From contig CAXXXD010000003.1 of the NCBI GenBank assembly GCA_963663385.2, forward strand, positions 480,001-544,000: a stretch of DNA of 64,000 nucleotides, written 5' to 3'. The position numbers and the translations under genes are program-made. The first letter of the stretch is position 1. Every line of letters starts with the position of its first letter. The notes beneath the pieces were generated by a model, which worked only from the letters and a program-made list of their open reading frames with translations, was not told the origin of the DNA and searched no databases. Positions 14,379-30,190 of the stretch are shown piece after piece. This DNA is from Oceanispirochaeta sp. GTDB lineage: Bacteria; Spirochaetota; Spirochaetia; DSM-2461.

Positions 14379-15242
14379 ATGATAGAAGAAAGAACAGAAA
14401 ATAATCTGATTGATCTGCCCCCCTTTCCCGGGGAGCGGGAGATACACCGCAAGGCGGGTTTCCGGATAAGCTCTTTTCAAAGGGCTTCCTGCTATCCCGC
14501 TCTTATAAAGCCTTATAAAAGGATCTTCCGCTTTTATTCCCTTTCTCATCTGATTGAAGGGGAGGGATGGTTCTGGACTCCCGGAGGAGGCAGGCGAAAG
14601 TTTACTGCCGGGCAGGGGGTTCTGATTGCCCCCGGAGATATTCACTGCTACGGAGGAGACGGAACGGAGTATGTGGAGGATTCTCTGTGCTTCAACGGCG
14701 CTATGACCAGCTTTCTCCGGGAAACAGGGATACTCAGGACGGATCTTCTGAATATCGGTCTGGACCGGCGTCTGCTGCCGATTATGGATCTGGCCGGGGA
14801 TCCGTCGGATGACGGGCAGTTAAAGGCCAATTCAGAGTGTATCAGTCTGCTTACAGATCTCTATCTGGAAAACCGGAGGTTCGGTCAGGTTCTCAGTCAT
14901 GAGGACTCTTTAAACAGGCTGATCCGGGACCTTCAGAAAAATCCGGGGTATTGGCGCAGCGTGGAAGAGATGGCTGAATACTGCAGCATCAGCAAGAACT
15001 ATTTCAGAACTCTCTTTCGGAACAAAACCGGACGTTCTCCCCGTGAATATCAGGAAGAACTGCGGATCAACCGGGCGCTGGAGCAGATTGTACTGGCTGG
15101 ATCAAGCATTACGGCTATAGCCGGATCTCTGGGTTACAGGGATGTGTATCACTTCAGCAAGGTATTCAGGAAAAATACCGGTATGAGTCCGCGGTCCTAC
15201 AGACAGCAGCACAGTATCTCCCATAAAACTTCTTCTCTATAA
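14379..15242 (+). CDS. AraC family transcriptional regulator
   Basis: Cupin-like N-term; C-term GY.DVYHFSKVFRKNTGMSP; divergent from the GH20 gene. Confidence 0.92.
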   Translation: MIEERTENNLIDLPPFPGEREIHRKAGFRISSFQRASCYPALIKPYKRIFRFYSLSHLIEGEGWFWTPGGGRRKFTAGQGVLIAPGDIHCYGGDGTEYVEDSLCFNGAMTSFLRETGILRTDLLNIGLDRRLLPIMDLAGDPSDDGQLKANSECISLLTDLYLENRRFGQVLSHEDSLNRLIRDLQKNPGYWRSVEEMAEYCSISKNYFRTLFRNKTGRSPREYQEELRINRALEQIVLAGSSITAIAGSLGYRDVYHFSKVFRKNTGMSPRSYRQQHSISHKTSSL

Positions 15243-16457
15243 TGGGTCATTGATCCCGGATTTTGCATTGCCGGGAGGCAGAGTCCTTTCCCTGCCGATC
15301 TTGAGATCAATACAAATCGATATTGTCAGCAGGATAAACAGGAGCGGTATTACTCCAAAGGAGGCCCGCAGACCCCAGCGGTCACCAATCCATCCCATAA
15401 TCCAGCTTGTCAGGGCGAATCCGGGAATCCCCATGGCCGAAAGCAGAATAAACAGCATGGTGGATTCACCTTTAATTCTGTCTGCGGCATAGGACTGGAT
15501 ACTGGGCCAGAAACAGGCACAGGCCAGACCGGCCAGGAAGAGCAGAGGAAAGAGGGTCGTAAGGGAGTTAATACGGAAGAAGCCCAGACTGAATATCAAG
15601 CCGGCCAGAGCGGATATGAGGATCTGTTTATGCAGATTCTTCTGTTTAACCGATCCTCCGGCAATACGTCCTGTAATCATACCGCCTGCAAAGATGGCCG
15701 TACCGATGGCTCCGGCACGTGGTGCTGTACCGTAGTATATCTGTATATAACTGGCGCTCCAGAAGGTATAAGCTGCTTCCGCTCCGCCTCCGCAAACCAT
15801 AGCCAGTCCAAACACCCAGAAGTGTCTGTCTTTTAGAATATCCCTGGTATGATGGAGGGGATTCCCCTTGGGCGCAGGCGGGATCTGTCCGCTGCGATGG
15901 GCCTTAATACTGCTTCCCAGAAAAAACAGGGTAAAGAATAAACTGGTCAGGCTCAGTCCTATAAAGATATTCCGCCAGGAGACCTCCCATGTCAGAAGTT
16001 CTCCCACTATCAGTACGGTTGTTAAAACGCCCACTGAGAAAAACGCATTCACCACATTCAGATAGCCTCCGGAATCTTCCGGATGAAGATCCTGTACAAG
16101 GGGATTGATCAGGGCTTCAATTAATCCGCCTCCCAGTCCGACAAGGACCATGGCAAAAAGGATAAACAGGTAGGACGGCGCCAGGCTGTAGCAGAGTAGG
16201 CCTGCTGTCAGGGTTATTCCTCCCATATAGAGTACAAACGTTTTCCCCCAGCGCACTGCCGCCATCCCGCTGAAGAGCAGAATAGCCACCAGAAGGATGG
16301 CCCTGACCGCTTCTATAGTCCCCCCCTCGGTCAGATTGAGGTCCATTTCCCGGGAAAGAACCATCAGGCAGATGGGGGTGGCTACGGCGCTGGCTGCGTA
16401 AGTAATCAGGTAGGCGGAAGAGGCCCAGTCCATGGTAGTCATTTTTATCTTATTCAT
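15237..16457 (-). CDS. MFS transporter (FucP-like sugar/acid permease)
   Basis: About 12 TM segments; ATG 16457 follows TTGCAA-N17-TACAAT. Confidence 0.85.
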   Translation of the reverse strand: MNKIKMTTMDWASSAYLITYAASAVATPICLMVLSREMDLNLTEGGTIEAVRAILLVAILLFSGMAAVRWGKTFVLYMGGITLTAGLLCYSLAPSYLFILFAMVLVGLGGGLIEALINPLVQDLHPEDSGGYLNVVNAFFSVGVLTTVLIVGELLTWEVSWRNIFIGLSLTSLFFTLFFLGSSIKAHRSGQIPPAPKGNPLHHTRDILKDRHFWVFGLAMVCGGGAEAAYTFWSASYIQIYYGTAPRAGAIGTAIFAGGMITGRIAGGSVKQKNLHKQILISALAGLIFSLGFFRINSLTTLFPLLFLAGLACACFWPSIQSYAADRIKGESTMLFILLSAMGIPGFALTSWIMGWIGDRWGLRASFGVIPLLFILLTISICIDLKIGRERTLPPGNAKSGINDPL

Positions 16458-16520: not shown

Positions 16521-17153
16521 CTACTTTTTGAAGTCGTGCATAATATGGGTGTTGAGAATGGATTCTATGAGGTTTTCTTCTCCATTTTCCATGGCTGAAA
16601 TCAGAACACTATGCTGTTTGATATACTCCTTCAGGGATTCGGATTCCAGTTTCTGATTAAGCCGGAGCAGCTGAATCCGGGCGTCCAGTTTTTCGAAAAT
16701 TTCAAAAAGACAGGTGTTGCCGCAGTTCTCTGCGATTTTTAGATGAAAGAGGCTGTCCATTTCGAAGGAACCGGCTTTGTCCTCTTTGGCATTTAAATCC
16801 AGACATTGATCGGAAATAGCCCTCAGTTCATCATAATATTCCCGGGCCGCATTACGGCTGAAAAGCTTTGCCGAAAGAATTTCCAGGTTGGTCCTGACTT
16901 CTCCGATCTCATGGGCTTCCTTTTCACTGATGATTACAACTTCCGCATAGCTGCGGGGTTTCAGGTATATCAGCCCGTAATCGCTCAACTTTTTAAGAGC
17001 TTCCCTGAGGGGGGTCCGACTGACACCGAAGAGTTTGCTCAGGGATGCTTCGGGGACCCGTTCTCCTCCTTTCAACTCTCCCGATAGAATCATGCGTTTA
17101 ATGTGGTCATACACCTGATCGGACAGGCTCTTTCTTGTGATTAATTCTTCCAT
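16521..17153 (-). CDS. GntR family (FCD) transcriptional regulator
   Basis: SLSDQVY..IKRMILSG, GVSRTPLREAL, D..FH. Confidence 0.93.
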   Translation of the reverse strand: MEELITRKSLSDQVYDHIKRMILSGELKGGERVPEASLSKLFGVSRTPLREALKKLSDYGLIYLKPRSYAEVVIISEKEAHEIGEVRTNLEILSAKLFSRNAAREYYDELRAISDQCLDLNAKEDKAGSFEMDSLFHLKIAENCGNTCLFEIFEKLDARIQLLRLNQKLESESLKEYIKQHSVLISAMENGEENLIESILNTHIMHDFKK

Positions 17154-17157
17154 GTTA

Positions 17158-17187
17158 TTATTGTATACAATAAACCATTATTGTCAA
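17158..17187 (-). promoter_or_regulatory. gntR promoter overlapped by a 16-bp palindromic operator
   Basis: TTGACA (17187-17182)-N16-TACAAT (17165-17160); palindrome TTATTGTATACAATAA at 17158-17173. Confidence 0.75.
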
Positions 17188-17257
17188 TAATGATTTGTGT
17201 TTCTCCATGGGGAGCCCCCCCGATCAGGAGGCTCATGTAATATTTAATATCAATTGC

Positions 17258-18208
17258 TTATTTGGAAGCGGTATATATATCTTCGAACTTCTGCATATAT
17301 GCTTTGGCTTCAGGGGCTGCCAGGTGATTGGGAACAAGGAGAAACTTATTGATATATCCCTCTTTCCATTTGCCGGAAGCTGCAACCTTGGCAAATACGT
17401 CAGACCAGAAATCCACAGCTGCCTGGGGCATATCGGCAGGACCTACTATTCCCCTGTAGATCTGGAACTCTATATTGTATCCCAGTTCTCCGAAGGTTGG
17501 AGCATCAAAGGGGGCGGCAAAGCGGGAAGCGCTTGCTGTTACAACAGGAACCAGTTCTCCGCTGGCAACAAGGTCGAAAGAAGCGGCGGGTTTGGCGATT
17601 GCCAGGTCAATATGAGCTCCCAGAAGCTGGGTCAGGGCTTCTCCGGTCGAGTCTGATCTCAGGTATTCCAGATCACCGCCGATTTCAGAAACCATGGCAT
17701 TATAAATCGCCTCATCGTCAGATTTGGAACCTCCGATGATAAATCTCTTTCCGCCTTTGATGGCTGTGATAATCTCTTCCATGGATTTGTAGGGAGAGTC
17801 ATGGTTTACCAGGAGGATCTGCCCGTCCAGTGCCATTACAGCCAGGGGAGTCAGGCCGTCCAGGTCTCCGCCTTCCATTTTTACGAGGGGTTCCAGGTCA
17901 CCTGAATTGAAGGTCAGAAGAGTATGGGATTCATTTTTCATCATACTCACAGCTCTTCTACCCACGGCTCCGCCGCCATCGGTTTTATAGTTGATGATAA
18001 TATCCTTGTCTACAAGGTTTTCTTCATTAATGATTTCTACAATAGTCTGTGTAAAAATAGAGGATCCGCCTCCGGCACTGGATGTTACTACCCATTCAAC
18101 ACCTTTGGTGGGACTCCAGGGGCCATCGGAAGATTCCTTTTGACCTTCAGCAAAAACAGCTGAAGCAAGGAAAGCGGTCATAAGCAGAATAGTCATAATT
18201 TTTTTCAT
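17258..18208 (-). CDS. tctC: Tripartite tricarboxylate transporter substrate-binding protein (TctC/Bug)
   Basis: Signal peptide, SAGGGS, GGGAVG, PTFGELGY, RGIVGP. Confidence 0.9.
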   Translation of the reverse strand: MKKIMTILLMTAFLASAVFAEGQKESSDGPWSPTKGVEWVVTSSAGGGSSIFTQTIVEIINEENLVDKDIIINYKTDGGGAVGRRAVSMMKNESHTLLTFNSGDLEPLVKMEGGDLDGLTPLAVMALDGQILLVNHDSPYKSMEEIITAIKGGKRFIIGGSKSDDEAIYNAMVSEIGGDLEYLRSDSTGEALTQLLGAHIDLAIAKPAASFDLVASGELVPVVTASASRFAAPFDAPTFGELGYNIEFQIYRGIVGPADMPQAAVDFWSDVFAKVAASGKWKEGYINKFLLVPNHLAAPEAKAYMQKFEDIYTASK

Positions 18209-18223
18209 TTTAAGCTCCTTTCA

Positions 18224-19732
18224 TTAAGCTTTTTTGGTTTTTCTATATTTTCCGAATACCGCGCGAATAATCGGAGAACATACAGTAAGAATAAGAAACG
18301 CCATCAGCACTGCTGATATGGGTCTCTGAAAGAATATCCAGGGGCTTCCATCAGATATAAGGAAGGACCTCCGGAAATCCCTTTCCAGCGTGGGTGCCAG
18401 AACAAATGCCAGAAGAAGAGGCGCTATCGGGTAGCCGTTTTTTTTCATGACAAATCCGAGGATACCCGAGGCCAGCATCAAACCGACTCCGTAGAGGGAG
18501 TTGCTGGCGCTGTAGGACCCCATGATACAGACAACAGTAATAATAGGGATCATCACTTTAGTCGGAACTTTCAGTATCCTGATCAGAGAAGGGATTATTG
18601 CCAGCGCAACTCCCAGAGTGATGATATTGGCCAGATACAGGGAGGCTATGAGTCCCCAGGTAAATTCCGGCTCATTCTGGAAGAGGAGCGGTCCGGGAGT
18701 AAGGCCGTACATCAGAAGACCGCCCAGGAGGACAGCTCCGGTTCCGGAACCGGGAATTCCCAGAGAGAGTAGAGGAGCGAAAGCTCCGGCCGCTGCCGAG
18801 TTGTTGGCTGCTTCCGCCGCTGCAACGCCTTCTATAACTCCTGTCCCCATAAGGTCTTTCTTCCTGCCCACCCTCTTTTCCAGCATATATCCGAGGAAGG
18901 AACCTGTAGTGGCACCGGCTCCGGGCAGGACCCCGATGAAGGTTCCCAGAAAGCTGGATCTGAGTGAGGGACCGAGAATCCGTTTGAACTCCCCTTTACT
19001 GAGAGTACTGTCTTTCAGGGAGAGCTTTTTCTGCTCGAATTCGGTCACTTTATTTCTGGTTTCCATCATCTCAATAACCTGTGAAAATCCGAATGCTCCT
19101 ATAACGAGGGGAATAAAACTGATACCTCCCAAAAGGTGAAGAGAGCCGAAATCGTAGCGGGGAGTACCCACGACAATATCAAATCCGATAGTAGCCAGTA
19201 CTATGCCGATCATAGTGGCGACGAGTCCCTTAGTGGGATTACCTCCCAGAAGCCATCCCAGTGAGGTCATGGCAACCATAAGGAGAGCTGCCATTTCTAC
19301 AGGTCCGAACTTCAGACCGATCCTTGCCAGACCGGGACCGATTATTGTCAGGATGATGATTCCGATGGTTCCGCCTATAAAGGAAGCTAAATTCGATGCA
19401 AAAAGGGCTTTTCCGGGCTTTCCTTTCTGGGCCAGAGGGTAGCCGTCCAGGGCTGTCATGACAGCGGGGCTGTCACCGGGGATATTTATCAGAATAGCGC
19501 TGTAGGATCCGCCGTACATATTGGCATAGTATATGGCGGACAGCATTATGATTCCCGTAACAGGATTGAATTTGAAGGTCAGAGGGAGAAGCAGGGCTAC
19601 TCCGGCCAGGGAACCGATACCGGGCATGGCACCCACGGCAAGGCCGAGAAGAGCGCCGACAGCCGCCGCAAGAAGGTTTTGAAACGAGAGGGCTATCTGA
19701 AACCCCTGTAAAAGTAATTGTAATGTTTCCAT
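18224..19732 (-). CDS. tctA: Tripartite tricarboxylate transporter large permease
   Basis: GAMPGIG, YGGSYSAILINIPG, EAANN, LGIPGS, PGPLLF. Confidence 0.94.
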   Translation of the reverse strand: METLQLLLQGFQIALSFQNLLAAAVGALLGLAVGAMPGIGSLAGVALLLPLTFKFNPVTGIIMLSAIYYANMYGGSYSAILINIPGDSPAVMTALDGYPLAQKGKPGKALFASNLASFIGGTIGIIILTIIGPGLARIGLKFGPVEMAALLMVAMTSLGWLLGGNPTKGLVATMIGIVLATIGFDIVVGTPRYDFGSLHLLGGISFIPLVIGAFGFSQVIEMMETRNKVTEFEQKKLSLKDSTLSKGEFKRILGPSLRSSFLGTFIGVLPGAGATTGSFLGYMLEKRVGRKKDLMGTGVIEGVAAAEAANNSAAAGAFAPLLSLGIPGSGTGAVLLGGLLMYGLTPGPLLFQNEPEFTWGLIASLYLANIITLGVALAIIPSLIRILKVPTKVMIPIITVVCIMGSYSASNSLYGVGLMLASGILGFVMKKNGYPIAPLLLAFVLAPTLERDFRRSFLISDGSPWIFFQRPISAVLMAFLILTVCSPIIRAVFGKYRKTKKA

Positions 19733-19737
19733 AAATC

Positions 19738-20187
19738 TCAACCTGTTATTGCGTTATAGATTAAGCCCGCCGGAAAGGGGACTCTGAGCCAGAGGACAAA
19801 TATCCCATAGAGGGAAAGGACCGTAATGGTCCCGGTCACAAGGGAAAATCTCAGGCTGTATTTTTCAAACCATTTCAACCAGCCGAATACAAAAAGCATT
19901 AATGCCGGAAAAAAACCGATAATCATGGCTGCGATGATTATTCCCGTTGCAGCCAGAAGCGGGTAGATATGCTCACGGAAGTATCCGGGGGAATCTTTCC
20001 CTCTTTCATCCAGAATCGCAAGTATGCTGATACCGGACAGAATCAGTCCTATGATGGATGGAAAGAAACCGCTGGCAGGACCGTTGTCACTCCACCATCC
20101 GTATTTCGTGATTCCAAGAACTACCCAGACAATTCCCGTAACGAATGTCAATGCGGGTAGAATCATTCTGGAATTTATTTTCTTCAT
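19738..20187 (-). CDS. tctB: Tripartite tricarboxylate transporter small permease
   Basis: GP.SGFFP motif, 4-5 TM segments, C-term L.VPFP.G; AAGGAG RBS. Confidence 0.88.
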   Translation of the reverse strand: MKKINSRMILPALTFVTGIVWVVLGITKYGWWSDNGPASGFFPSIIGLILSGISILAILDERGKDSPGYFREHIYPLLAATGIIIAAMIIGFFPALMLFVFGWLKWFEKYSLRFSLVTGTITVLSLYGIFVLWLRVPFPAGLIYNAITG

Positions 20188-20238
20188 CAAATCTCCTTGT
20201 GCAGAGCATTAGAAATTCCGGCTGATATTTTGATAGTG

Positions 20239-20316
20239 TATTGTATACCATATCCAAAATACACCTGAAGTATAGCCCTGCTTTTTTCAGCTGTCAAGTA
20301 AAAATTGTATACCATT
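20239..20316 (-). promoter_or_regulatory. tctBAC promoter flanked by two operator copies
   Basis: TTGACA (20297-20292)-N17-TATACT (20274-20269); TTGTATACCA at 20241 and 20305. Confidence 0.7.
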
Positions 20317-20576
20317 GGAAGAATTTTTTTAAGGTACAAAAAAGGCTGTATGAAAAATAAGTCAAAGAATCGCCTAAACATTATAAAATAAGTCTCCTAT
20401 TAAGGATAACTTAGGATTAATAATTTTTATATGTTTGCAATATAAGGAAATACTGGTTGGTAGCGAATGACCTTGAAATGGAGGAGTACAGGGTTGCCAG
20501 GGGGGTGAATAATCTTTTTCAAGGTATTGTTCTGGTCTCATTGAGTCTGTGGAGTGATGGCTTCTCCAAAAAAGTA

Positions 20577-20605
20577 TTGACAATAAGTTAAAATAGTATA
20601 CAATG
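20577..20605 (+). promoter_or_regulatory. Catabolic operon promoter with operator overlapping the -10
   Basis: TTGACA (20577)-N16-TACAAT (20599); TAGTATACAA overlaps the -10. Confidence 0.7.
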
Positions 20606-20700
20606 TGCAATGTGAGTGTAGGTAAGAGAATTCCGGCAGAATTCAAATAGAATCATACGGAGACAGTCCGGATTGTCCGTTCTGTCAGGGAGTAAATTAT

Positions 20701-21687
20701 ATGAACAGGAAAATAGCATTCATGATCGGCGATCCCGCGGGCATAGGCCCCGAGATAACCGCCAAATGTCTGAGCGCCTACAAACCCCATTCAGGTATTT
20801 CCATTCTTCTGGTGGGAGACAGGAAGAGTTTTGACAGGGCTTTGGGCATTACAGGAATTTCCCTTTCCTTTGAAGAAGTTGATAAAGCCGGAATCGTGAA
20901 GAATGACGCGCCTCTCCAGTTTCTGGATATTCCGGTTGAAAGGGGAGAGGAAATCCCTTTTGGAGAAGTTTCCGCAGAAGCGGGCGCCATGGTGTACAAA
21001 TCGCTGAAGACGATACTGGCTCTGGTGGATGATGATCTGGTGCAGGGATTTGTTTTTGCTCCTTTTAACAAGGAAGCCCTGAAAAAGGGCGGATGTCCTT
21101 TCAGCAGTGAGCTGGAAATGTATAAAGCTCACTTCAACCGCCCCGATGTGAATGGTGAAATCAACTACCTGGAACCTTTCTGGGCTAACCGGGTGACCAG
21201 CCATATCGCGGTCAAGGACATTCCCTCCTTCATAAAAAAAGACCGGATACTGGAAACGATCTCTTTTCTTGATACGGAAATGGAACGGTTCGGTGTGGAA
21301 GAAAGAAAAATTGCTGTGGCAGCTCTTAATCCCCATGGGGGAGAGAAGGGGCTGTTCGGAACGGAAGAGATAGATGAAATACGTCCTGCCGTGGAGGAAG
21401 CCCGGAAATCCGGAATATCGGTAGATGGGCCTTTTCCGGCTGATACTATCTTTCTGAAGGTTCGGAAAGGGGAGTATAACGCTGTGGTTTCCATGTATCA
21501 CGATCAGGGCCAGGTGGCAACCAAACTGATCGGGTTTGATAAGGGTGTGACTGTACACGGGGGAATGCCTGTTGCCATAGCAACCTGTGCACACGGCACG
21601 GCATTCGATATTGCCGGAACGGGCAAGGCCGATGCCAACGCCCTTATGCAGGCTTTGAAACTGGTCCTTTCATCAGTTATTGAGTAA
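20701..21687 (+). CDS. PdxA-family decarboxylating dehydrogenase (divergent, catabolic)
   Basis: GDPAGIGPE, LNPHGGE, GPFPADT, MYHDQG, HGTAFDIAG. Confidence 0.9.
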   Translation: MNRKIAFMIGDPAGIGPEITAKCLSAYKPHSGISILLVGDRKSFDRALGITGISLSFEEVDKAGIVKNDAPLQFLDIPVERGEEIPFGEVSAEAGAMVYKSLKTILALVDDDLVQGFVFAPFNKEALKKGGCPFSSELEMYKAHFNRPDVNGEINYLEPFWANRVTSHIAVKDIPSFIKKDRILETISFLDTEMERFGVEERKIAVAALNPHGGEKGLFGTEEIDEIRPAVEEARKSGISVDGPFPADTIFLKVRKGEYNAVVSMYHDQGQVATKLIGFDKGVTVHGGMPVAIATCAHGTAFDIAGTGKADANALMQALKLVLSSVIE

Positions 21688-21698
21688 AGGGGGACCAT

Positions 21699-22505
21699 AT
21701 GGCTATAAAACTCGCACTGGCCGTGGCTCCCGAAAATGCCCTGATGTCAGCTTTCGTGGTTTTCAGGGACAGACTCGATGTGAGCCTGAAGAAGGCGGCA
21801 GAACTGGGATATGACGGGGTTGAACTGGCTCTGCTCAGAAAAGACCAGGTCAATCTGACCGAAGTTAAAAGAATTCTGAAGGAAACCGGACTGGAAATCC
21901 CTATGGTTTCCACCGGACAGATTTTTGCAGATACGGGAGTGAATTTCACCCATCCCGATAGGGACAAAAGAGAGAAAGCCCTTTCGGATTTTATGGGGCT
22001 TATGGAAGTGGCTGCTGAACTGGGAAGCCTGATCAACATAGGGCGGCTCAGAGGGGAACTGCATGAAGGCAGTCCTTCGGAAGAGTATTTCATGGATTGT
22101 ATGGCTAAAGCGATGGACCGGGCGGATGAACTGGGTGTCTCTGTGGTGCTTGAACCGGTCAACCGCTATGAAATTAATTTTCTCAATACCTGTGAGCAGT
22201 GTGCTGATGTCATCCGTACACTGGGAAGAAAAAATCTGGGTATGATGCCCGATGTGTTTCATATGAATATTGAGGATCCCTCCATAGAAGGTTCCCTCTG
22301 GAAATATGCGGAACATGCAAAGTATATCCACCTGGCCGACTCCAACAGATGGGCTCCCGGACGGGGGCATCTGAATTTCCAGAGCATTATCTCCACATTG
22401 AAACAGATCGGGTATGAGGGGTGGGTCTCTGCCGAAATCCTGCCTTTCCCGGATCCGGATGTAGCCGCCTATGAGGCTGTTAATACCATCCGGAAGTATC
22501 TGTAG
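21699..22505 (+). CDS. Sugar isomerase/epimerase, TIM barrel (IolO / ketose 3-epimerase-like)
   Basis: GYDGVE, LEPVNRYE, DVFHMNIE, HLADSNR.APG.GH, SAE. Confidence 0.88.
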   Translation: MAIKLALAVAPENALMSAFVVFRDRLDVSLKKAAELGYDGVELALLRKDQVNLTEVKRILKETGLEIPMVSTGQIFADTGVNFTHPDRDKREKALSDFMGLMEVAAELGSLINIGRLRGELHEGSPSEEYFMDCMAKAMDRADELGVSVVLEPVNRYEINFLNTCEQCADVIRTLGRKNLGMMPDVFHMNIEDPSIEGSLWKYAEHAKYIHLADSNRWAPGRGHLNFQSIISTLKQIGYEGWVSAEILPFPDPDVAAYEAVNTIRKYL

Positions 22506-22516
22506 AGGAGAAGATC

Positions 22517-22903
22517 ATGAAATTTTCTGCAGAACACTGGGGGATCATGGCTGAAGATCCGGCAAAACTTGCTTCCTGGTATCGTAATGTTCTCGGTTTT
22601 GAGCATCTGTTCGTTCCCGAGGGGAAAAAGTTTCCTGTTTTTATCAAAGATGGTAACGGTCTCATTATTGAATTCTTTCCCATGAATCCGGAAATTATTA
22701 AGCCCGATGATCAGGTAAGGAAGATGCAGCATCTCAGCCTCTCTGTTACGGATTTTGAAGAAGCAGTGAACTACCTGAAAGAGCAGGGAGTGGAATTCCG
22801 GGAACAGGTCATCAATCTGTTCATGGATGCCAGGGCGCTTTTCTTTCAGGATCCTGAAGGGAACTGGATTCACCTTATCCACAGGCCCGTAATGCCCTGG
22901 TAA
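22517..22903 (+). CDS. VOC (glyoxalase-like) family protein
   Basis: H..I, WY..VLGF, HLSL.V.D, FFQDPEGN. Confidence 0.88.
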   Translation: MKFSAEHWGIMAEDPAKLASWYRNVLGFEHLFVPEGKKFPVFIKDGNGLIIEFFPMNPEIIKPDDQVRKMQHLSLSVTDFEEAVNYLKEQGVEFREQVINLFMDARALFFQDPEGNWIHLIHRPVMPW

Positions 22904-22924
22904 ATTATATTTTTGGAGTAATCT

Positions 22925-23776
22925 ATGAAAAAACTAACAGCGGAAGAGCTGCAGAACCTGGCTCAGAAATTCCGCATAGATATTATAAAAACACTGCACG
23001 AAAAAGGATCCGGTCACTGGGGCGGTTCTTCTTCAGTCGCCGATATTCTGACAACTCTGTACTTTGACAGAATCAATGTAGATCCCGATAACCCGGATTG
23101 GGACGAACGGGACAGAATCGTCTTGAGTAAAGGCCATGCCGCCCCGATCCTCTACCGGGTTCTGCAGGAAAAAGGATTTTTCCGGGAGGGACAGAACATC
23201 TCTCAACTGCGGGATATCAACAGTCCTCTGCAGGGACACCCCTGTATGCGGAAAACCCCCGGAGTCGATATGTCAACCGGAGCACTGGGACACGGCCTTT
23301 CCGTTGGTCTGGGGATGAGCCTGATGGCTGAAAAAGCAGCCAACCCCTGGTGGACCTATGTTATCGTGGGCGAAGGCTGCCTTCAGGAAGGTACGAGCTG
23401 GGAAGCTATTATGGCTGCGGGCAAGTTCGCTCCTACCCGTCTGTGTCTGATTGTTGACTATAACAAGGTTCAGCTGGACGGCACCTGCGATGAGATTATG
23501 CCGATGGATCCTCTGGCCGACAAGTTCAGAGCCTTCAACTGGAATGTCGCAGAAACATCCTATAACGGACATGATGTTAATGAGATCCGGAAGTCCTTTG
23601 CCTGGCTTGATGAGCAGAAAACCGGTCCTTCGGTTATCATTTACGATACGGTTAAAGGAAAGGGGGTTTCCTTTATGGAGAACACCAATACCTGGCATGG
23701 CGCTCCTGTACAGGACGAACACCTAGAAAAGGCTCTTCCCGAACTGGAAGCGATCCTGAAAGAGAAGGGGGAGTAA
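22925..23776 (+). CDS. Transketolase, N-terminal (TPP-binding) subunit
   Basis: SGHWGG, LSKGHA, LQGHP, GEGCLQEG...DYN, KGKGVSFME. Confidence 0.93.
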   Translation: MKKLTAEELQNLAQKFRIDIIKTLHEKGSGHWGGSSSVADILTTLYFDRINVDPDNPDWDERDRIVLSKGHAAPILYRVLQEKGFFREGQNISQLRDINSPLQGHPCMRKTPGVDMSTGALGHGLSVGLGMSLMAEKAANPWWTYVIVGEGCLQEGTSWEAIMAAGKFAPTRLCLIVDYNKVQLDGTCDEIMPMDPLADKFRAFNWNVAETSYNGHDVNEIRKSFAWLDEQKTGPSVIIYDTVKGKGVSFMENTNTWHGAPVQDEHLEKALPELEAILKEKGE

Positions 23777-23778
23777 GC

Positions 23779-24705
23779 ATGAGCAAAGCAATGAGAGAAG
23801 CCCTTGGAGAGGCACTCGTTAAAATAGGAAAAACCAACGATAAGCTTATGGTTCTGGATGCGGATGTATCCAGCAGTACAAAAACCGGACTGTTCGGCAA
23901 GGCATTTCCCGATCGTTTTTTCAATATGGGGGTAGCGGAAGCCAATATGGCCGGAACAGCCGCGGGTATGGCTGCCTGCGGTTACCGTCCGGTAATCAGC
24001 GCCTTCGCTATCTTTCTGGCCCTGAAGTCTACCGATCAGATCCGGAATGTCATCAGCTATAATAATCTTCCTGTCATTATCGCCGGCGGGTATGCCGGTT
24101 TGTCCGACTCATTTGACGGCGCCAGCCATCAGGCTCTTACGGATATTGCCATAATGCGGGCCTTTCCCAATATGACAGTAATAGTACCCGCCGATGCGCA
24201 GCAGGTTGAAGAAGCTGTGGAAGAAGCCCTGAAAATTGACGGTCCCGTTTATCTCCGGCTCTGCCGCAACCCCACACCCGAAGTAGCCGGGAAAAAGCCT
24301 CTGAAAATCGGGAAAGCCGATCTACTGGCAGAAGGGGCGGATGTAACCATTACAGCCTGTGGCGTTACCGTACCCATGGCTCTGGAAGCAGCCGAGGCTC
24401 TGAAAAAAGAAGGAGTAACAGCGGATGTGATAAATATGGCTACGATTAAACCCCTGGACCGTGATGCGGTGATCAGATCGGTTAAAAAAACCGGCTGCCT
24501 CCTCTCTGTTGAAGAGCACTCTGTCATGGGTGGTCTGGGAAGCGCTGTCAGTGAAGTTCTTGCAAGGGAGTATCCCGTACCCATGGATTTTGTGGGAGTG
24601 GACGATACCTTCACCGAATCGGGTCCCTATAACGAACTGATGGCAAAATACGGCGTCAGTGTGGAAGCTATCTGCAGCAAGGCAAAGGCTCTGGCTGCAA
24701 GATAA
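23779..24705 (+). CDS. Transketolase, C-terminal subunit
   Basis: GVAEANM, DGASHQ, GPVYLRL, KPLD, EEH..GGLG. Confidence 0.93.
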   Translation: MSKAMREALGEALVKIGKTNDKLMVLDADVSSSTKTGLFGKAFPDRFFNMGVAEANMAGTAAGMAACGYRPVISAFAIFLALKSTDQIRNVISYNNLPVIIAGGYAGLSDSFDGASHQALTDIAIMRAFPNMTVIVPADAQQVEEAVEEALKIDGPVYLRLCRNPTPEVAGKKPLKIGKADLLAEGADVTITACGVTVPMALEAAEALKKEGVTADVINMATIKPLDRDAVIRSVKKTGCLLSVEEHSVMGGLGSAVSEVLAREYPVPMDFVGVDDTFTESGPYNELMAKYGVSVEAICSKAKALAAR

Positions 24706-24773
24706 ATCAAAACAGAAAAACAGCAGAGTGTTACCGCAGGGAATGCTCTAAAGCTGTAAAAACAGGAATTGAG

Positions 24774-26048
24774 ATGAATAATATTGAAAAAGCACAGGCT
24801 ATGTTAAGAGAATTTAAAGGCGAAAATTACCTTTTCGGGGCGGGCGTTCTACCGGAAGTCGGAGCTGCAGCAAAAAAGATAGGCTCGAAAGCGATTATTA
24901 TCCGGGACAATTTCCCCGGGGCGGATGACTTTGTCGGAACCATCCGTTCCTCCCTGGAAAAATCCGGTGTGGAGATAGTTGGGGAAGAGAACGGCGCCAG
25001 ACCGAACTGTCCTCTGGAAGATCTGGAAAGGATTACGGGGGCGCTGAAAGAATCCGGAGCAGATATTATTGTCAGTTTCGGAGGGGGAAGCACAATCGAT
25101 GCAGCCAAGGCGGCAGAAGTTCTGAGAACCCTGGGCGGAACCATTGAGGATTATTTCGGTGTCGGACTGGTCAGCAAAGCCTGTGAAGAGAAAGGGATTA
25201 CCCTGACTCCCCATATTGCAGTGGAGACGGTTGCTTCTTCGGGAGCTCATCTTACCAAGTACTCCAATATTACCGATGTTGAAACAGGTCAGAAAAAACT
25301 GGTTGTAGACCCCGCCATTGTTCCTTCCCATCCTGTTTTTGATTATGAAGTAACCTATAGTCTTCCCAAAGGTGTATCAATGGACGGCGGACTGGACGGA
25401 ATCGCCCACTGTCTGGAAGTTTTCTACAGTGCAGTCGGGACTGACGGTTATGAAAAGAGTAGAGAGATTGCCGAAGTGGGAATCTCCCTGGTTGTTGAGT
25501 ATCTTCCCCGGGTCATTAACGATCCGAGAGACACTGAGGCCCGGAATGCCCTGTGTCTGGCTACGGATATGGGCGGTTACGCCATTATGGTGGGCGGTAC
25601 CAACGGCGGTCATCTGACCAGTTTCTCTCTGGTTGATGTCCTCTCCCACGGCCGGGCCTGCGCCATTATGAATCCCTACTACTCCGTTTTCTTTGCTCCG
25701 GCGGTAGAGAAAGAGCTGAGAATCGTTGGGAATATTTTTAAGAAGTACGGTTATTCCGATGTGGATTTCGAATCTCTCAGTGGAAAAGAGCTGGGAGAAG
25801 CGGCCGCCCAGGCAATGTTCGGTCTGGCAGAGGCGGTAGACTTTCCCCTGACCCTGGGAGAGGTGGACGGATTTACGGATGCTCATATCGAGAGAGCATT
25901 GACGGCTGCCAAAAACCCTCAGCTGAAGATGAAACTGCAGAATATGCCTGTTCCCCTGAATGCTGATCTGATCGATGACTATATGGGACCCATTCTGCAG
26001 GCGGCTAAAACGGGAGATCTCTCTCTCATAAAAAGTTTGAACGTTTAA
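24774..26048 (+). CDS. Iron-containing alcohol dehydrogenase family protein
   Basis: GGGSTIDAAK, DGIAHCLE, GH...HG metal ligands. Confidence 0.88.
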   Translation: MNNIEKAQAMLREFKGENYLFGAGVLPEVGAAAKKIGSKAIIIRDNFPGADDFVGTIRSSLEKSGVEIVGEENGARPNCPLEDLERITGALKESGADIIVSFGGGSTIDAAKAAEVLRTLGGTIEDYFGVGLVSKACEEKGITLTPHIAVETVASSGAHLTKYSNITDVETGQKKLVVDPAIVPSHPVFDYEVTYSLPKGVSMDGGLDGIAHCLEVFYSAVGTDGYEKSREIAEVGISLVVEYLPRVINDPRDTEARNALCLATDMGGYAIMVGGTNGGHLTSFSLVDVLSHGRACAIMNPYYSVFFAPAVEKELRIVGNIFKKYGYSDVDFESLSGKELGEAAAQAMFGLAEAVDFPLTLGEVDGFTDAHIERALTAAKNPQLKMKLQNMPVPLNADLIDDYMGPILQAAKTGDLSLIKSLNV

Positions 26049-26071
26049 AACTGCATAATATTTTACCCATT

Positions 26072-26109
26072 GAACCGGAGCTCTCTCCTCCTCTTGAGAG
26101 CTCCGGTTC
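26072..26109 (+). other. 14-bp perfect intercistronic hairpin with pyrimidine loop
   Basis: GAACCGGAGCTCTC-tcctcctctt-GAGAGCTCCGGTTC; only a weak U tail. Confidence 0.7.
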
Positions 26110-26161
26110 TTCAGCATAAGGGGAGTTTATCAGCCCTGATTTCCAAGGAGATAATACAAAG

Positions 26162-27541
26162 ATGATTAAAACAGATTTTCCAATCGGTCCTGAAAAAGAC
26201 GGACTGAAGCTGCCTGACGGGACGGATATCCTGAGGATGCCCCATCCTCCCAGACTGGATGACTATGCTTCTGCTGTTCGGCAGTCCCTTGCAGAACCTG
26301 TTGCATCAGAACGGCTGGAACAGATAATCCGCTCCAAAACTGCCGGAGGGAAAAGTGTAAACGAACTGTCCGCCTGTATTGTCATATCCGACAGCACCCG
26401 TCCCGTTCCCTACAAGGGAGAACAGGGCATTCTCTGGCCTCTGGCGGATATCCTGCTGAAAGAGGGAGTCGAGCCTGAGAATATCCTGGTTCTGGTTGCA
26501 ACAGGCACGCACCGGGCGCAGACTGAGGAAGAGCTGCGGGATATGCTGGATACCCGTATCTTTGAAAATGGCATCCGGGTTGCCAACCATGACTGTACCA
26601 ATGAACAGGCGCTGGTGAACCTCGGCACAACAAGCAAGGGCGGTAACATTATTATCAACCGGGATTATATGGAGAGCGATATCAGGATCCTGACCGGGCT
26701 GGTGGAAAGTCATTTTATGGCCGGTGCCTCGGGTGGGCGTAAGTCCATCTGTCCCGGTTTGATAGGGGAGGAGAGCACCTTTGTTTTTCACGGGGCTCCC
26801 ATGCTGGCCCATGAGAATTCCCGGGCCCTGCTTCTGGACGGCAATCCCTGCCATGAAGAGTCCAAAGAGATGGCTCTGAAAGCCGGGGCTGATTTTATCT
26901 GCAATGTCACTCTGGATGGGGATTTCAACCTGACCGGTGTGTTCTCGGGGGATCTGATAAAAGCCCATGAAGCGGCTGTGGAACATCTGAAAAGCTATAC
27001 CGCTATTCCCGTTGATAAAAAATACGACATTGTTGTAAGTCATGGCGGATTTGTAGGGATAAATCACTATCAGGTTGCCAAAGCCGGAGTGGAAGCTTCC
27101 CGAATTGTCAGGGAGAACGGTTATGTTCTGATCGGCGGTGACAATACCGATACGGATCCGGTGGGGTCCATTTACTACCGGACCGCCCTGCAGCTGCTGA
27201 AAATTCAGGGGACTGAGAACTTTGAGAAGATCCTGACTTCCCCGGACTGGGCTTTTATTCTGGAGCAGTGGCAGGTTCAGATGTGGACCAAACTGTTCAA
27301 ACTGATTCCACAGGACCACTTCTACTATTTTGCCCCCCAGTTTTCGGATGGGGAGTATATGGTGTGCGCCGGAGAGGATATGAGAAAGCTCAGCGGATCC
27401 GATTCAGCCTCCATCCCGGAACAAATCTCCCTGGCATTGGAAAACCTTATTGAAAAGGTTAAGCTGGAAACAGGCAGAGAAGAAGTCTCTGTCTGCTGGA
27501 TGGCCGACGGGCCCTATGGAGTGCCCCTGTATGAAAACTGA
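26162..27541 (+). CDS. LarA-family nickel-pincer alpha-hydroxyacid racemase/epimerase
   Basis: SDSTRP, ATGTHR, NHD, ESHFMAGASGGRKSICPG, FH, YQ..K. Confidence 0.88.
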   Translation: MIKTDFPIGPEKDGLKLPDGTDILRMPHPPRLDDYASAVRQSLAEPVASERLEQIIRSKTAGGKSVNELSACIVISDSTRPVPYKGEQGILWPLADILLKEGVEPENILVLVATGTHRAQTEEELRDMLDTRIFENGIRVANHDCTNEQALVNLGTTSKGGNIIINRDYMESDIRILTGLVESHFMAGASGGRKSICPGLIGEESTFVFHGAPMLAHENSRALLLDGNPCHEESKEMALKAGADFICNVTLDGDFNLTGVFSGDLIKAHEAAVEHLKSYTAIPVDKKYDIVVSHGGFVGINHYQVAKAGVEASRIVRENGYVLIGGDNTDTDPVGSIYYRTALQLLKIQGTENFEKILTSPDWAFILEQWQVQMWTKLFKLIPQDHFYYFAPQFSDGEYMVCAGEDMRKLSGSDSASIPEQISLALENLIEKVKLETGREEVSVCWMADGPYGVPLYEN

Positions 27542-28196
27542 AATAGCCCTGATTCATACGACACCTCTTGTTCTGGAACCTGTACAGAAGGCATTGGATC
27601 CCCTGCGGGAGAGGTATCACTTTTTTCATATGCTGGACGAAGCTGTTCTGATAAGGATGATGAAGGACGGCAATACCGGGGACCTTGCCATTCCCTGGCT
27701 GGCGGGTCTTGTCGAAAACGCTTTCAGGGGAGGAGCCGAGGGAATTATCGTAACCTGCAGCTCCCTCTCTCCCTGGGTGCGGGAAATTCAGTCCCTGTTT
27801 GAAAAGCCCGTCCTCCGTATTGATGAAGTCCTGTACCATCATGTGTTTTCCACCTGTTCCCGTCCTGCCGTACTCATGACGAATCCTACAAACGAATTCC
27901 CCGCCCGGGTTCTGACTGAAGAGATGAAAGCCCTTTGCGGTTTGCAGGCGGAAGTGCCGTTTATTGTCTGCAAGGATGCTTTCAAAGCCCTGCAGAATGG
28001 TGATCAGGAAAGCCATGACCGTGAGGTGGCCGAGACCATTGCCCGGCTGTCAGAAGACCACGACGGAATTATCCTTTCCCAGATATCCATCGAGCGGGTA
28101 AGGAACTCCCTGCCGCCGGACTTGAGGGAAATGGTATACTCCAGTCTGGATTTTATCAAGGAAACCCTGGCAAATCATGGTTTGCAGTACTGTTAA
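27531..28196 (+). CDS. Asp/Glu/hydantoin racemase-like protein
   Basis: IALIHTT, VTCSSL, PVLRIDE, IILSQIS; overlaps the larA-like stop. Confidence 0.75.
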   Translation: MKTEIALIHTTPLVLEPVQKALDPLRERYHFFHMLDEAVLIRMMKDGNTGDLAIPWLAGLVENAFRGGAEGIIVTCSSLSPWVREIQSLFEKPVLRIDEVLYHHVFSTCSRPAVLMTNPTNEFPARVLTEEMKALCGLQAEVPFIVCKDAFKALQNGDQESHDREVAETIARLSEDHDGIILSQISIERVRNSLPPDLREMVYSSLDFIKETLANHGLQYC

Positions 28197-29725: not shown

Positions 29726-30169
29726 CTACTTTTCCTTTCTTTCCAGAATCATCCGGAAAGGAATAAAAACAACCATATTCAGTATCACTGCATACAGCAT
29801 GGTAATAAGGGCGACAGCCAGATTGGGGCCGATTTTGGCTGTATCGCTTATATCCGCCAGAACGGCTATCATTCCCGTCAGAAATCCGAACAGACCCGCC
29901 GCCAGGGTATAGGCTCCCATATTTTTAAAATACCTTACTGCCTGCCTGGTGATTTCAGGTTCCGGATCTATCTGGAACACTGCCTTGAAGTAGAGGAAAC
30001 CGGGTGTCAGACCATAGAAGAAAAGGGATACAATCAGACCGAAAATCAGAATCACCAGCAGACTGGCCATATCGACATAGAACAACGGATTGGTTCGGGT
30101 CAGAACAATCAGGCTTACAACGGCACCTGAAAACAGAATCAAATACAGAAAATAACCACTCTTTTTCAT
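29726..30169 (-). CDS. Short MotA/TolQ/ExbB-like membrane protein
   Basis: D..SLLVI, G..GFL.G.I..L, IGPNLAVALIT.LY. Confidence 0.75.
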   Translation of the reverse strand: MKKSGYFLYLILFSGAVVSLIVLTRTNPLFYVDMASLLVILIFGLIVSLFFYGLTPGFLYFKAVFQIDPEPEITRQAVRYFKNMGAYTLAAGLFGFLTGMIAVLADISDTAKIGPNLAVALITMLYAVILNMVVFIPFRMILERKEK

Positions 30170-30190
30170 AAAAAACCTCACTATTTTTTT

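Follow-up and report, generated by a model that had tools for sequence, protein, structure and literature searches.

A conserved spirochaete gene cluster that may import and break down an unphosphorylated sugar acid independently of a sugar kinase

How can a sugar acid be channelled into central metabolism when no sugar kinase is encoded beside its transporter and its enzymes? This question is raised by twelve genes at positions 16521-28196 of a 64,000-nucleotide stretch of DNA from Oceanispirochaeta sp. (the window), which corresponds to positions 480001-544000 of contig C3 of a 5.3-Mb genome that is 98% complete and whose proteins have their nearest named relatives in Oceanispirochaeta. Genes were called from an open reading frame (ORF) listing combined with Pfam and NCBIfam profile scans, and all twelve belong to the families that an original prediction, made from the letters of the window, had assigned to them: a GntR regulator and a tripartite tricarboxylate transporter (TTT; TctA, TctB, TctC), followed on the other strand by a PdxA-like dehydrogenase, a TIM-barrel protein, a VOC protein, a transketolase (TK) split into two subunits, an iron-containing alcohol dehydrogenase (Fe-ADH), a LarA-family protein and an Asp/Glu-racemase-fold protein. 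None of the twelve proteins reached an NCBIfam equivalog cut-off. The predicted lack of a sugar kinase in the cluster was confirmed, and the same scans detected no kinase gene in either flank. The divergent arrangement of the two gene groups also held. The order on the minus strand had to be corrected to tctB-tctA-tctC-gntR, with gntR preceded by an operator-bearing promoter of its own, and the plus-strand operon starts after a 510-bp spacer from tctB. We read the cluster as a regulon under GntR repression, by which an unphosphorylated hydroxy or sugar acid would be taken up and catabolised independently of a kinase, and we give this reading about an even chance of being correct.

Synteny was analysed by tblastn of the twelve proteins against retrieved loci. 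Five of the eight orthologous spirochaete loci (L017, L123, L125, L127, L128) carry all twelve genes in the same order and the other three (L122, L124, L126) carry ten, the missing pair being Fe-ADH and LarA. Locus L129 contains a truncated version of the cluster, and L137, which comes from a different spirochaete family, has 11 of the 12 genes (no VOC gene) in another order and mostly on one strand. Two further versions were found by a metagenome scan with the clade alignment. In L166, a PrpR gene is followed by genes for the PdxA-like protein, TctBAC, the TIM barrel, the racemase-fold protein and the two TK subunits (TK-N, TK-C). In L157, PrpR is followed by PdxA-like, TctB and TctA, then by the racemase-fold protein, the TIM barrel and an aldo-keto reductase (AKR), and finally by GntR and TK-N at the contig end. 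Fe-ADH and LarA are jointly absent from these two loci as well. A VOC gene also follows a PdxA-like gene in L134 and L129. The cluster is a real unit, which recurs in eight related loci and, rearranged, in three distant lineages. Because of the gene contents of L017, L122-L128, L137, L166 and L157, the invariant core consists of the TTT importer, the PdxA-like enzyme, the TIM barrel, the racemase-fold protein and the split TK. Among 80 genome-contig loci retrieved with the PdxA-like protein, only L017 bears the gene set. A class-level sample of 301 genomes yielded PdxA-like matches at E ≤1e-80 in 25, and in seven of these, besides the genome of origin, the identity to our PdxA-like protein was 67-70%.

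When we inspected the intergenic regions, we found that a 14-mer operator, AATGGTATACAAT(A/G), with a GTATAC core is common to the spacer and its counterparts in nine loci. In the window, it accompanies three promoters (Table 1), which are the best sigma-70-like matches between positions 16000 and 29000 (11/12 each), and the same operator-on-promoter arrangement is present in L017 and L122-L128. Promoter-like matches in this 13-kb region numbered 30 as compared with 13.8 ± 3.6 in shuffled sequences; the terminator scan returned 16 candidates (14.7 expected), and no Rfam family was found between positions 15000 and 30000. The layout points to a repressor that acts on its own gene as well as on those of the transporter and the enzymes, and GntR is the probable repressor. 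Together with the conserved synteny, the three operator-bearing promoters bear out the idea of an import and catabolism unit under GntR. A genome-wide scan identified 16 operator sites with no more than two mismatches among 1120 GTATAC cores. The best site outside the cluster (C2:506983) is located between a GarR-like gene and a GntR-PBP/FGGY operon, and we rejected it as a conserved regulon member, since it was present upstream of the orthologous genes in none of three relatives. Its surroundings (L142, C2:503200-510200) encode three Mo-hydroxylase subunits, a GarR-like reductase and an adjacent GntR-PBP regulator, with the perfect-core operator copy in between. Because the same Mo-hydroxylase, GarR-like and GntR-PBP genes flank the cluster in L017 (19-5700 and 17800-19700), this site may be the scar of an earlier cluster position.

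The central question concerns the substrate of the PdxA-like enzyme. This protein is the sole PdxA homologue of the organism, and a search of the 98%-complete genome for DUF1537 (PF07005) gave no match. It matched PF04166 with 281.7 bits (cut-off 27) and remained below the PdxA equivalogs NF002992 (281.6 vs 470) and TIGR00557 (255.5 vs 290) and below the PdxA2 model NF002891 (224.2 vs 583). Its best solved relatives are PdxA2 and PdxA (about 200 bits), and TphB (PDB 4aty) is a distant family member. The premise of the original prediction that all known PdxA-family routes need kinases was too strong, since TphB belongs to this family and a PdxA-family decarboxylase of L-ascorbate catabolism reportedly uses a free sugar acid. 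For residue comparison, six kinase-linked or E. coli PdxA sequences, the kinase-linked homologues being picked by Pfam in Bacillota loci (L046, L061, L034, L020, L022), were aligned with 12 sequences of our clade. The alignment also took in spirochaete homologues, the genes of which sit directly after genes of TTT or tripartite ATP-independent periplasmic (TRAP) transporters. Thirteen alignment columns separate the kinase-linked set cleanly from the other set. In E. coli numbering, G135, H136, T137, M152, R159, T285, R292, S294, V295 and D296 are invariant in the kinase-linked set and are replaced in the other set, in the same order, by S (or N), E, L (H/F), E, W, H, I (V), T, C/P/S and A. At G135, H136, T137, R159, R292, S294, V295 and D296, our protein reads S, E, L, W, I, T, C and A. 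The metal-binding residues H166, H211 and H266 and the NAD-binding glycines are invariant in all aligned sequences, and E137, E153 and W161 are invariant in all 21 clade members, including those with KSB3, Deltaproteobacteria, Syntrophus and Firmicutes labels. According to a published account, H136 hydrogen-bonds the substrate in PdxA (PMC10471632).

A similar division was seen in 80 metagenome loci, where many contigs are short and gene absences are therefore weak evidence. The H137/R293 type occurs in 40 of them, with DUF1537 nearby in 11 and TTT or TRAP genes in one, and the E137/non-R type in 36, with DUF1537 in none, TTT or TRAP genes in 13 and a split TK in two. Because of the comparative residue pattern, we assign our protein to a subgroup that appears to lack phosphate binding and to work on an imported acid. 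As had been proposed, the acid used by the PdxA-like enzyme is very probably unphosphorylated; the replaced residues, the lack of DUF1537 in the genome and its lack in all 36 E-type loci argue for this. Two other arrangements were observed. Locus L134 (4096-11623) contains genes for Dak1, a hexulose-phosphate-synthase-like protein, a cupin, DctPQM, an E-type PdxA-like protein, VOC, Dak2 and RpiB. This gene set looks like that of a sister pathway in which this PdxA subgroup works together with kinases and the free ketose would be phosphorylated afterwards. In L020 (Lentibacillus) and L022 (Geomicrobium), DeoR, a DUF1537 kinase, an H/R-type PdxA, a non-H/R-type PdxA and TctCBA are encoded together and therefore, both PdxA types can coexist in one operon.

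The remaining core proteins were analysed in a similar way. The importer is complete, and the best PDB matches of TctC are TTT binding proteins, including terephthalate binders. The TIM barrel scored 265.4 bits on the IolO model (equivalog cut-off 300), and its best PDB match was TM_0416 of T. maritima (175.9 bits), followed by D-allulose, D-tagatose and L-ribulose 3-epimerases. By these scores, it appears closest to epimerases that act on unphosphorylated keto sugars or keto-uronates, and the ketose-epimerase role previously assigned to it is supported. For the VOC protein, assistance of the PdxA-like step is our guess.

The split TK keeps H26, H66, H100, N185, H261, E411, D469 and H473 as well as R358, S385 and R520; D155 is replaced by Glu and H461 by Gly, and the latter exchange was also seen in other split TKs examined. 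We take the roles of these residues from TK in general and assume that the arginines bind sugar phosphates, as in the E. coli and yeast enzymes. Judged from the alignment, the catalytic set is intact and the enzyme should be catalytically competent, as expected for the split TK of the original prediction. The genome also encodes one full-length housekeeping TK and two further split TKs. One of these (L237, C2:211800-221700) is 41-44% identical to that of the window, and its locus, which looks kinase-free, contains two GntR/FCD regulators, two TIM barrels, TctB, TctA, the split TK and a D-2-hydroxyacid dehydrogenase; it lacks PdxA. The other one (L239, C4:222000-232400) lies with a sugar ABC importer, a fucose-isomerase-like protein, which is weakly like the sulfoquinovose isomerase SftI, DeoR and a glycerol kinase above its equivalog cut-off.

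The racemase-fold protein has few relatives. They formed 27 clusters at E ≤1e-10, which are mostly spirochaetal and all without a name; a PDB sequence search gave no match at E ≤0.01, and the ESM Atlas returned only generic 'Asp/Glu racemase family' clusters. Its AlphaFold2 model (pLDDT 95) matched aspartate racemase best (1jfl, TM-score 0.77), and the structural matches to aspartate/glutamate racemases ranged from 0.73 to 0.78 at 10-20% identity. C76, S77, D98, H162, D163, Q184 and S186 are invariant. At what we take to be the second catalytic motif, the Cys is absent and (S/A)Q(I/A)S is present in 22 of 22 sequences. It is thus unlikely, judging from these residues, that the protein is a classical two-thiol racemase, and our guess is an epimerase or a decarboxylase acting at the carbon beside a carboxylate.

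Fe-ADH and LarA form an optional module, and a paralogous set (Fe-ADH, LarA and GntR/FCD) is located at C4:434041-437371. The Fe-ADH of the window shares 88% protein identity and 78% DNA identity over 1259 nt with this paralogue (C4:434041-435309) but only 56-57% with the Fe-ADHs that occupy this position in relatives, among which identities are 72-84%. Because of this difference, the original Fe-ADH of the cluster looks to have been displaced by a paralogue. The LarA of the window is orthologous to that of the relatives (65-69% identity). On the SarD model, Fe-ADH scored 109.9 (cut-off 700). The C4 copy belongs to a locus (L140, C4:424700-437400) that contains AraC, GH4, an ABC importer, two sulfatases and PIN upstream of Fe-ADH, LarA and GntR/FCD. 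At 16 kb from this copy lie larC-larE-larB and a CbiMQO transporter (L141, C4:449800-456000), and the genes for synthesis of the nickel-pincer nucleotide (NPN) were recognized at C4:452.9-456.0 kb (LarC 488 bits, LarE 300.6 vs 150, AIRC-type LarB-like). The C4 locus is probably a sulfated-glycan locus joined to an Fe-ADH/LarA module and nickel cofactor genes. In a locus from Clostridia (L033, 12501-18075), we observed an Fe-ADH-like gene (58% to that of the window), a gene of the ADP-dependent sugar-kinase family, a split TK and a second Fe-ADH, and the adjacent PdxA is of the canonical type and lies beside a lipoate ligase.

When LarA was aligned to the L. plantarum enzyme (5huq/6c1w), equivalents of R75, H108, H174, K184 and H200 were found. 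Its specificity positions read F,M,W,Q, which is neither the gluconate-epimerase pattern (E,V,A,H) nor that of malate racemase, and it scored 260.9 on the lactate racemase equivalog (cut-off 460). In PMC11770544, the LAR pattern is given as F,F,W,E/Q with the Gln variant linked to glycerate preference, and predictions from these positions are described there as imperfect. The pocket thus appears to be of the lactate/glycerate type. The original prediction had made LarA the C2 epimerase of the imported acid. This role is unlikely in view of the F,M,W,Q pocket and of the lack of LarA in three of the eight orthologous loci, in L166 and in L157.

The relatives add genes of their own. A cytoplasmic sulfatase of the Cys type, with a CMPAR motif and without a signal peptide, is encoded between tctA and tctC in L122, L124 and L126, which suggests that some lineages take up a sulfated form of the substrate; L124 also carries a second PdxA paralogue and a PCC-domain gene. 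A separate locus of our organism (L238, C2:1206000-1212400) contains LysR, TctC-TctB-TctA, a cytoplasmic sulfatase that is 43% identical to the in-cluster sulfatase of the relatives, and a 208-aa protein without family. These genes suggest that a sulfated carboxylate has an importer of its own. In L125 and L127, a glycerate kinase (489.7 bits vs 168), an AKR and IclR directly follow the racemase-fold gene. AKRs are also present in L128 and, within the operon, in L157, which brings the loci with AKR to four, and amidohydrolases with 39-52% mutual identity are encoded in L137, L017 and L166. No FGGY, PfkB or DUF1537 gene was found within 5.5 kb of the cluster in the seven orthologous loci scanned with Pfam (L127 was covered by tblastn only), and in the scanned loci, the glycerate kinase of L125 was the sole kinase near the cluster. 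The earlier description of the pathway as self-contained did not hold: it would depend on larC-larE-larB elsewhere and on a phosphorylated acceptor, and relatives add a glycerate kinase (two loci), a sulfatase (three), an AKR (four) or an amidohydrolase (three).

From these data, we infer the following route, including the order of the steps, the acceptor and the roles of the VOC and racemase-fold proteins. TctCBA would import the acid, and the single-Cys racemase-fold protein would adjust the centre beside the carboxylate. The PdxA-like enzyme, the metal and NAD machinery of which is intact and the distal anion pocket of which is rebuilt to Glu/Glu/Trp/His, would then oxidise the beta-hydroxyl and decarboxylate the acid to a free 2-ketose one carbon shorter, probably assisted by the VOC protein. 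Next, the IolO/TM0416-like barrel would epimerise C3 to the configuration needed by a TK donor, and the split TK would move C1-C2 to a phosphorylated acceptor, in the simplest case to glyceraldehyde 3-phosphate with formation of xylulose 5-phosphate. Such a transfer would thereby give access to the pentose-phosphate pathway without a dedicated kinase. The short aldehyde released would be reduced by the optional Fe-ADH or, in other lineages, by an AKR, and the LAR-type LarA would racemise a short 2-hydroxyacid of the same branch, probably glycerate, before glycerate kinase. Import, oxidative decarboxylation, ketose epimerisation and C2 transfer are retained here from the original prediction; its C2 epimerisation of the acid by LarA and its self-containment are not. 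As substrate, we consider a hexonate (L-gulonate, L-galactonate or gluconate type) before a pentonate, and both before an aldarate or an ascorbate-derived dicarboxylate. A hexonate could give a pentulose and glyceraldehyde, and a pentonate could give erythrulose and glycolaldehyde. An aldarate or tartrate could lead to keto-acids and tartronate semialdehyde, and ascorbate-derived branched acids are possible as well.

In its most specific form, the proposal is a phosphate-borrowing route not described before: a remodelled PdxA would remove CO2 from a free sugar acid, which carries sulfate or is a lactone in some lineages, and the ketose would enter the pentose-phosphate pathway solely by TK action onto glyceraldehyde 3-phosphate, with no ATP spent on activation. 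It would include a new single-Cys protein of the Asp/Glu-racemase fold with a sugar acid as substrate and, paired with Fe-ADH, a glycerate racemase of the LarA type, and the organism would apply this strategy at no fewer than three split-TK loci. We hold this form tentatively and consider it somewhat more likely to fail than to hold in all its parts.

Several observations weigh against kinase-free catabolism of a simple sugar acid. The sulfatase inside the transporter operon of three relatives is left unexplained by a plain aldonate. The argument from the phosphate pocket is comparative apart from the assumption that T137 and R292 of PdxA hold the substrate phosphate. An enzyme of the racemase fold normally needs a carboxylate beside the carbon it inverts, and this would place its step ahead of decarboxylation or call for a substrate in which a second carboxylate is retained. 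TTT systems and IolO-type epimerases likewise handle dicarboxylates and keto-uronates, and the glycerate kinase and GarR-like reductase near some relatives point to tartronate semialdehyde or glycerate and not to a neutral aldehyde. Finally, FGGY kinases are encoded elsewhere in the genome and a remote kinase is possible.

In a rival explanation, which we consider unlikely, the substrate would be a dicarboxylic sugar acid, for instance a hexarate of the glucarate/galactarate type or tartrate, and the product of the PdxA-like enzyme would be a keto-uronate or hydroxypyruvate that keeps a carboxylate. Here, inversion of a centre beside a carboxylate would fall to the racemase-fold protein, and epimerisation or isomerisation of the keto-acid to the IolO-like barrel. 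With the keto-uronate or hydroxypyruvate as donor, the remainder of the TK reaction would be tartronate semialdehyde, for whose reduction to glycerate Fe-ADH, an AKR or a GarR-like enzyme would serve; the glycerate would be racemised by LarA and phosphorylated by glycerate kinase. TTT systems typically carry di- and tricarboxylates, the barrel scores closest to the keto-uronate epimerase IolO, the racemase fold binds dicarboxylates (structural matches include succinate and citrate complexes), and the LarA pocket is of the glycerate/lactate type. Moreover, glycerate kinase adjoins the cluster in L125 and L127, a GarR-like reductase (253 bits vs a cut-off of 340) lies beside it in L017, and the sister locus L237 joins TTT, TIM barrels, split TK and D-2-hydroxyacid dehydrogenase without PdxA. 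However, with two Arg lost and a Trp and two invariant Glu gained, the rebuilt PdxA pocket seems ill suited to a second anion. None of Fe-ADH, LarA and glycerate kinase is obligatory, sulfation of aldarates is not known, and we know of no bacterium in which hydroxypyruvate or keto-uronates have been established as physiological TK donors. It is quite improbable that the substrates are breakdown products of L-ascorbate (2,3-diketogulonate, 2-carboxy-pentonates, lactones). In such a route, the PdxA-like enzyme, the racemase-fold protein (as an arylmalonate decarboxylase-like enzyme) or both would decarboxylate a branched dicarboxylate to a pentonate and further to L-erythrulose, which TK would split to a C2 unit and glycolaldehyde; the amidohydrolase would be a lactonase, and the sulfatase would act on ascorbate 2-sulfate. 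L-erythrulose is a classic TK donor, and the ascorbate pathway of Cupriavidus reportedly employs a PdxA-family 2-carboxy-L-lyxonate decarboxylase alongside a lactonase of the amidohydrolase superfamily. The homologous amidohydrolases beside the cluster in three independent lineages would fit, as would the single Cys of the racemase-fold protein with Ser/Gln at the second position, which we take to be a decarboxylase pattern. Nevertheless, the genome of our organism has no orthologue of the relatives' amidohydrolase, LarA would have no role since glycolate is achiral, and the whole chain is conjectural.

The two other explanations call the kinase-free character or the unity of the cluster into question. 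In a conventional phosphorylative route, the kinase would be encoded elsewhere, and the PdxA-like enzyme and TK would use phosphorylated substrates as in the PdxA2 or apiose pathways. The TK retains the arginines that presumably bind sugar phosphates in the E. coli and yeast enzymes, the genome encodes FGGY kinases, GlpK and a glycerate kinase, and the related PdxA-like locus L134 carries Dak kinases. Such a route is nonetheless highly improbable: DUF1537 is lacking from the genome, the residues common to all kinase-linked PdxA enzymes are replaced, DUF1537 accompanies 11 of 40 H/R-type loci but none of 36 E-type loci, the seven scanned orthologous loci have no sugar kinase within 5.5 kb, and the operator-like site at the FGGY operon is kept in none of three relatives. 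Alternatively, the twelve genes may not constitute one pathway, so that Fe-ADH and LarA would form an independent lactate/glycerate or diol module inside a separate operon. The absence of the pair from three of eight orthologous clusters, the stand-alone set at C4:434041-437371 and the closer similarity of the window Fe-ADH to the C4 copy (88%) than to its positional counterparts (56-57%) are in line with this explanation. Yet the pair lies between TK-C and the racemase-fold gene in five relatives and is present in the rearranged L137, and the Clostridia locus couples a split TK with an Fe-ADH of this subfamily (58%), so that we regard a separate module as improbable. We continue to prefer kinase-independent catabolism of an imported, unphosphorylated acid by the cluster as a unit.

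Coordinates of the genes and control elements are summarized in Table 1. The ORF of the racemase-fold protein opens at 27450 and its likely start is the ATG at 27531, which gives an overlap of 11 nt with the larA stop. Upstream, the cluster is flanked by GH20, AraC and major facilitator superfamily genes, and downstream by genes for ZIP, a MotA-like fragment and an extracytoplasmic function sigma factor. The MotA-like ORF (29726-30181, 151 aa) matches only the C-terminal part of MotA/PomA (profile positions ~137-206 of 254) and may be a fragment or a short paralogue.

Table 1. Genes, promoters and operators of the cluster (window positions)
Feature	Positions	Strand	Evidence or details
gntR, GntR/FCD regulator	16521-17153	-	Pfam GntR 62 bits, FCD 65 bits; 64-83% identity in 8 orthologous loci
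gntR promoter, TTGACA-16-TACAAT	17187-17160	-	-10 overlaps operator 17159-17172 (14-mer with 2 mismatches)
tctC, periplasmic TTT solute-binding protein with signal peptide	17258-18208	-	Pfam TctC 63.6 bits
tctA, large TTT membrane subunit	18224-19741	-	Pfam TctA 481 bits
tctB, small TTT membrane subunit	19738-20190	-	Pfam TctB 50 bits
Divergent control region, tctB/pdxA-like	20191-20700	.	Promoters and operators
tctB promoter, TTGACA-17-TATACT	20297-20269	-	Operators at 20239-20252 and 20303-20316 around it
pdxA-operon promoter, TTGACA-16-TACAAT	20577-20604	+	-10 inside operator 20592-20605
PdxA-family NAD-dependent dehydrogenase (decarboxylating), E137/E153/W161 subgroup	20701-21687	+	Pfam PdxA 281.7 bits
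Xylose-isomerase-like TIM barrel (AP_endonuc_2), putative IolO/TM0416-like ketose or keto-uronate 3-epimerase	21699-22505	+	IolO model 265.4 bits
Small VOC/glyoxalase-fold metalloprotein	22517-22903	+	Pfam Glyoxalase 55.8 bits
Transketolase_N (thiamine diphosphate-binding) subunit	22925-23776	+	Pfam 185 bits
TK Pyr + C subunit	23779-24705	+	Pfam 137 and 115 bits
Fe-ADH-family oxidoreductase	24774-26048	+	Pfam Fe-ADH 116 bits, ADH_Fe_C 48 bits
LarA-family nickel-pincer racemase, 459 aa	26162-27541	+	Lar_N 170.7 bits
Asp/Glu-racemase-fold protein	27531-28196	+	Pfam Asp_Glu_race 57 bits (cut-off 31)

If our reading is correct, the cluster would let acid sugars enter the pentose-phosphate pathway in anaerobic marine bacteria without a kinase and at a saving of ATP. 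Functions would also be assigned to a large misannotated subgroup of 'PdxA' proteins, which are labelled as vitamin B6 enzymes; in our organism, this protein has neither another PdxA homologue nor a kinase partner at its side. For annotation, E137/E153/W161 versus H136/T137/R292 offers a simple signature that separates the two PdxA types. In addition, the Asp/Glu-racemase fold and the LarA family would both have a wider chemistry, and the variants with a sulfatase hint that sediment spirochaetes draw on a pool of sulfated carboxylates.

Our literature searches retrieved no published description of this gene set, its absence from print being judged from these searches, and this agrees with the original prediction, which had not recognized it as a described pathway. 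The cluster does not belong to the PdxA2/DUF1537, apiose, sulfo-transketolase (sulfo-TK), Ula or IolO pathways because the features that define them are lacking here. PdxA2 and DUF1537 kinases function in D-threonate and D-erythronate catabolism (Zhang et al. 2016, as cited in PMC13753588 and PMC9997740). Like this system, the cluster has a PdxA-family NAD-dependent beta-hydroxyacid dehydrogenase/decarboxylase in an acid-sugar operon, which in L020 and L022 is accompanied by TTT genes. However, the PdxA2 enzymes use 4-phospho acids made by a DUF1537 kinase and keep H136/T137/R159/R292, whereas our cluster has no kinase, those residues are replaced and the product would be passed to TK. TphB (PDB 4aty) provides a precedent for a PdxA-family enzyme that acts on a non-phosphorylated carboxylate and is paired with a TTT binding protein. 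In contrast to our cluster, TphB and the 2-carboxy-L-lyxonate decarboxylase reported for Cupriavidus are parts of aromatic ring or dehydratase routes with no TK, epimerase or racemase-fold partner.

The sulfo-TK pathway of sulfoquinovose uses no kinase, and an Fe-ADH reduces the leftover aldehyde. In this pathway and in the D-apiose TK route (PMC13753588), a split TK moves C2 from an unusual ketose to glyceraldehyde 3-phosphate, and this is the likeness to our cluster. Unlike the latter, both routes handle neutral or sulfonated sugars with other transporters and have no PdxA decarboxylation, racemase-fold protein or LarA, and the apiose route uses a kinase. No isomerase, kinase or sulfoacetaldehyde reductase specific for the sulfo-TK or apiose routes was found in the cluster, and a separate locus at C4:222-236 kb, with L239, looks more like them than the cluster does. 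A relationship with the D-apionate route, in which we had considered ApnO as a PdxA-family enzyme, was rejected; ApnO has a KARI-like (ketol-acid reductoisomerase-like) fold according to PMC13753588. IolO, TM0416 and the ketose 3-epimerases belong to the same TIM-barrel family as our barrel and act on unphosphorylated keto sugars or keto-uronates, but our barrel stays below the IolO equivalog cut-off of 300 and its context is not inositol or uronate catabolism. With the LAR branch of the LarA superfamily, as described in PMC7583248 and PMC11770544, the cluster protein shares catalytic and NPN-binding residues, a pocket (F,M,W,Q) near F,F,W,E/Q and the presence of NPN genes in the genome. It differs by its score (260.9 vs 460 bits), its greater length (459 aa) and its constant pairing with Fe-ADH.

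Further parallels are the Ula/Yia pathway of L-ascorbate and 2,3-diketogulonate and the mammalian glucuronate-xylulose pathway. There, a 3-keto-aldonate is decarboxylated to a pentulose, on which a TIM-barrel 3-epimerase of the same Pfam family acts. They differ from our cluster in that they involve a kinase or a reduction and oxidation via xylitol, employ separate enzymes for dehydrogenation and decarboxylation and lack entry via TK. Taken together, the cluster is an acid-sugar catabolic operon in which known families occur in a new combination, and its logic resembles a cross between the decarboxylate-then-epimerise scheme of the ascorbate and glucuronate-xylulose pathways and the kinase-free sulfo-TK pathway.

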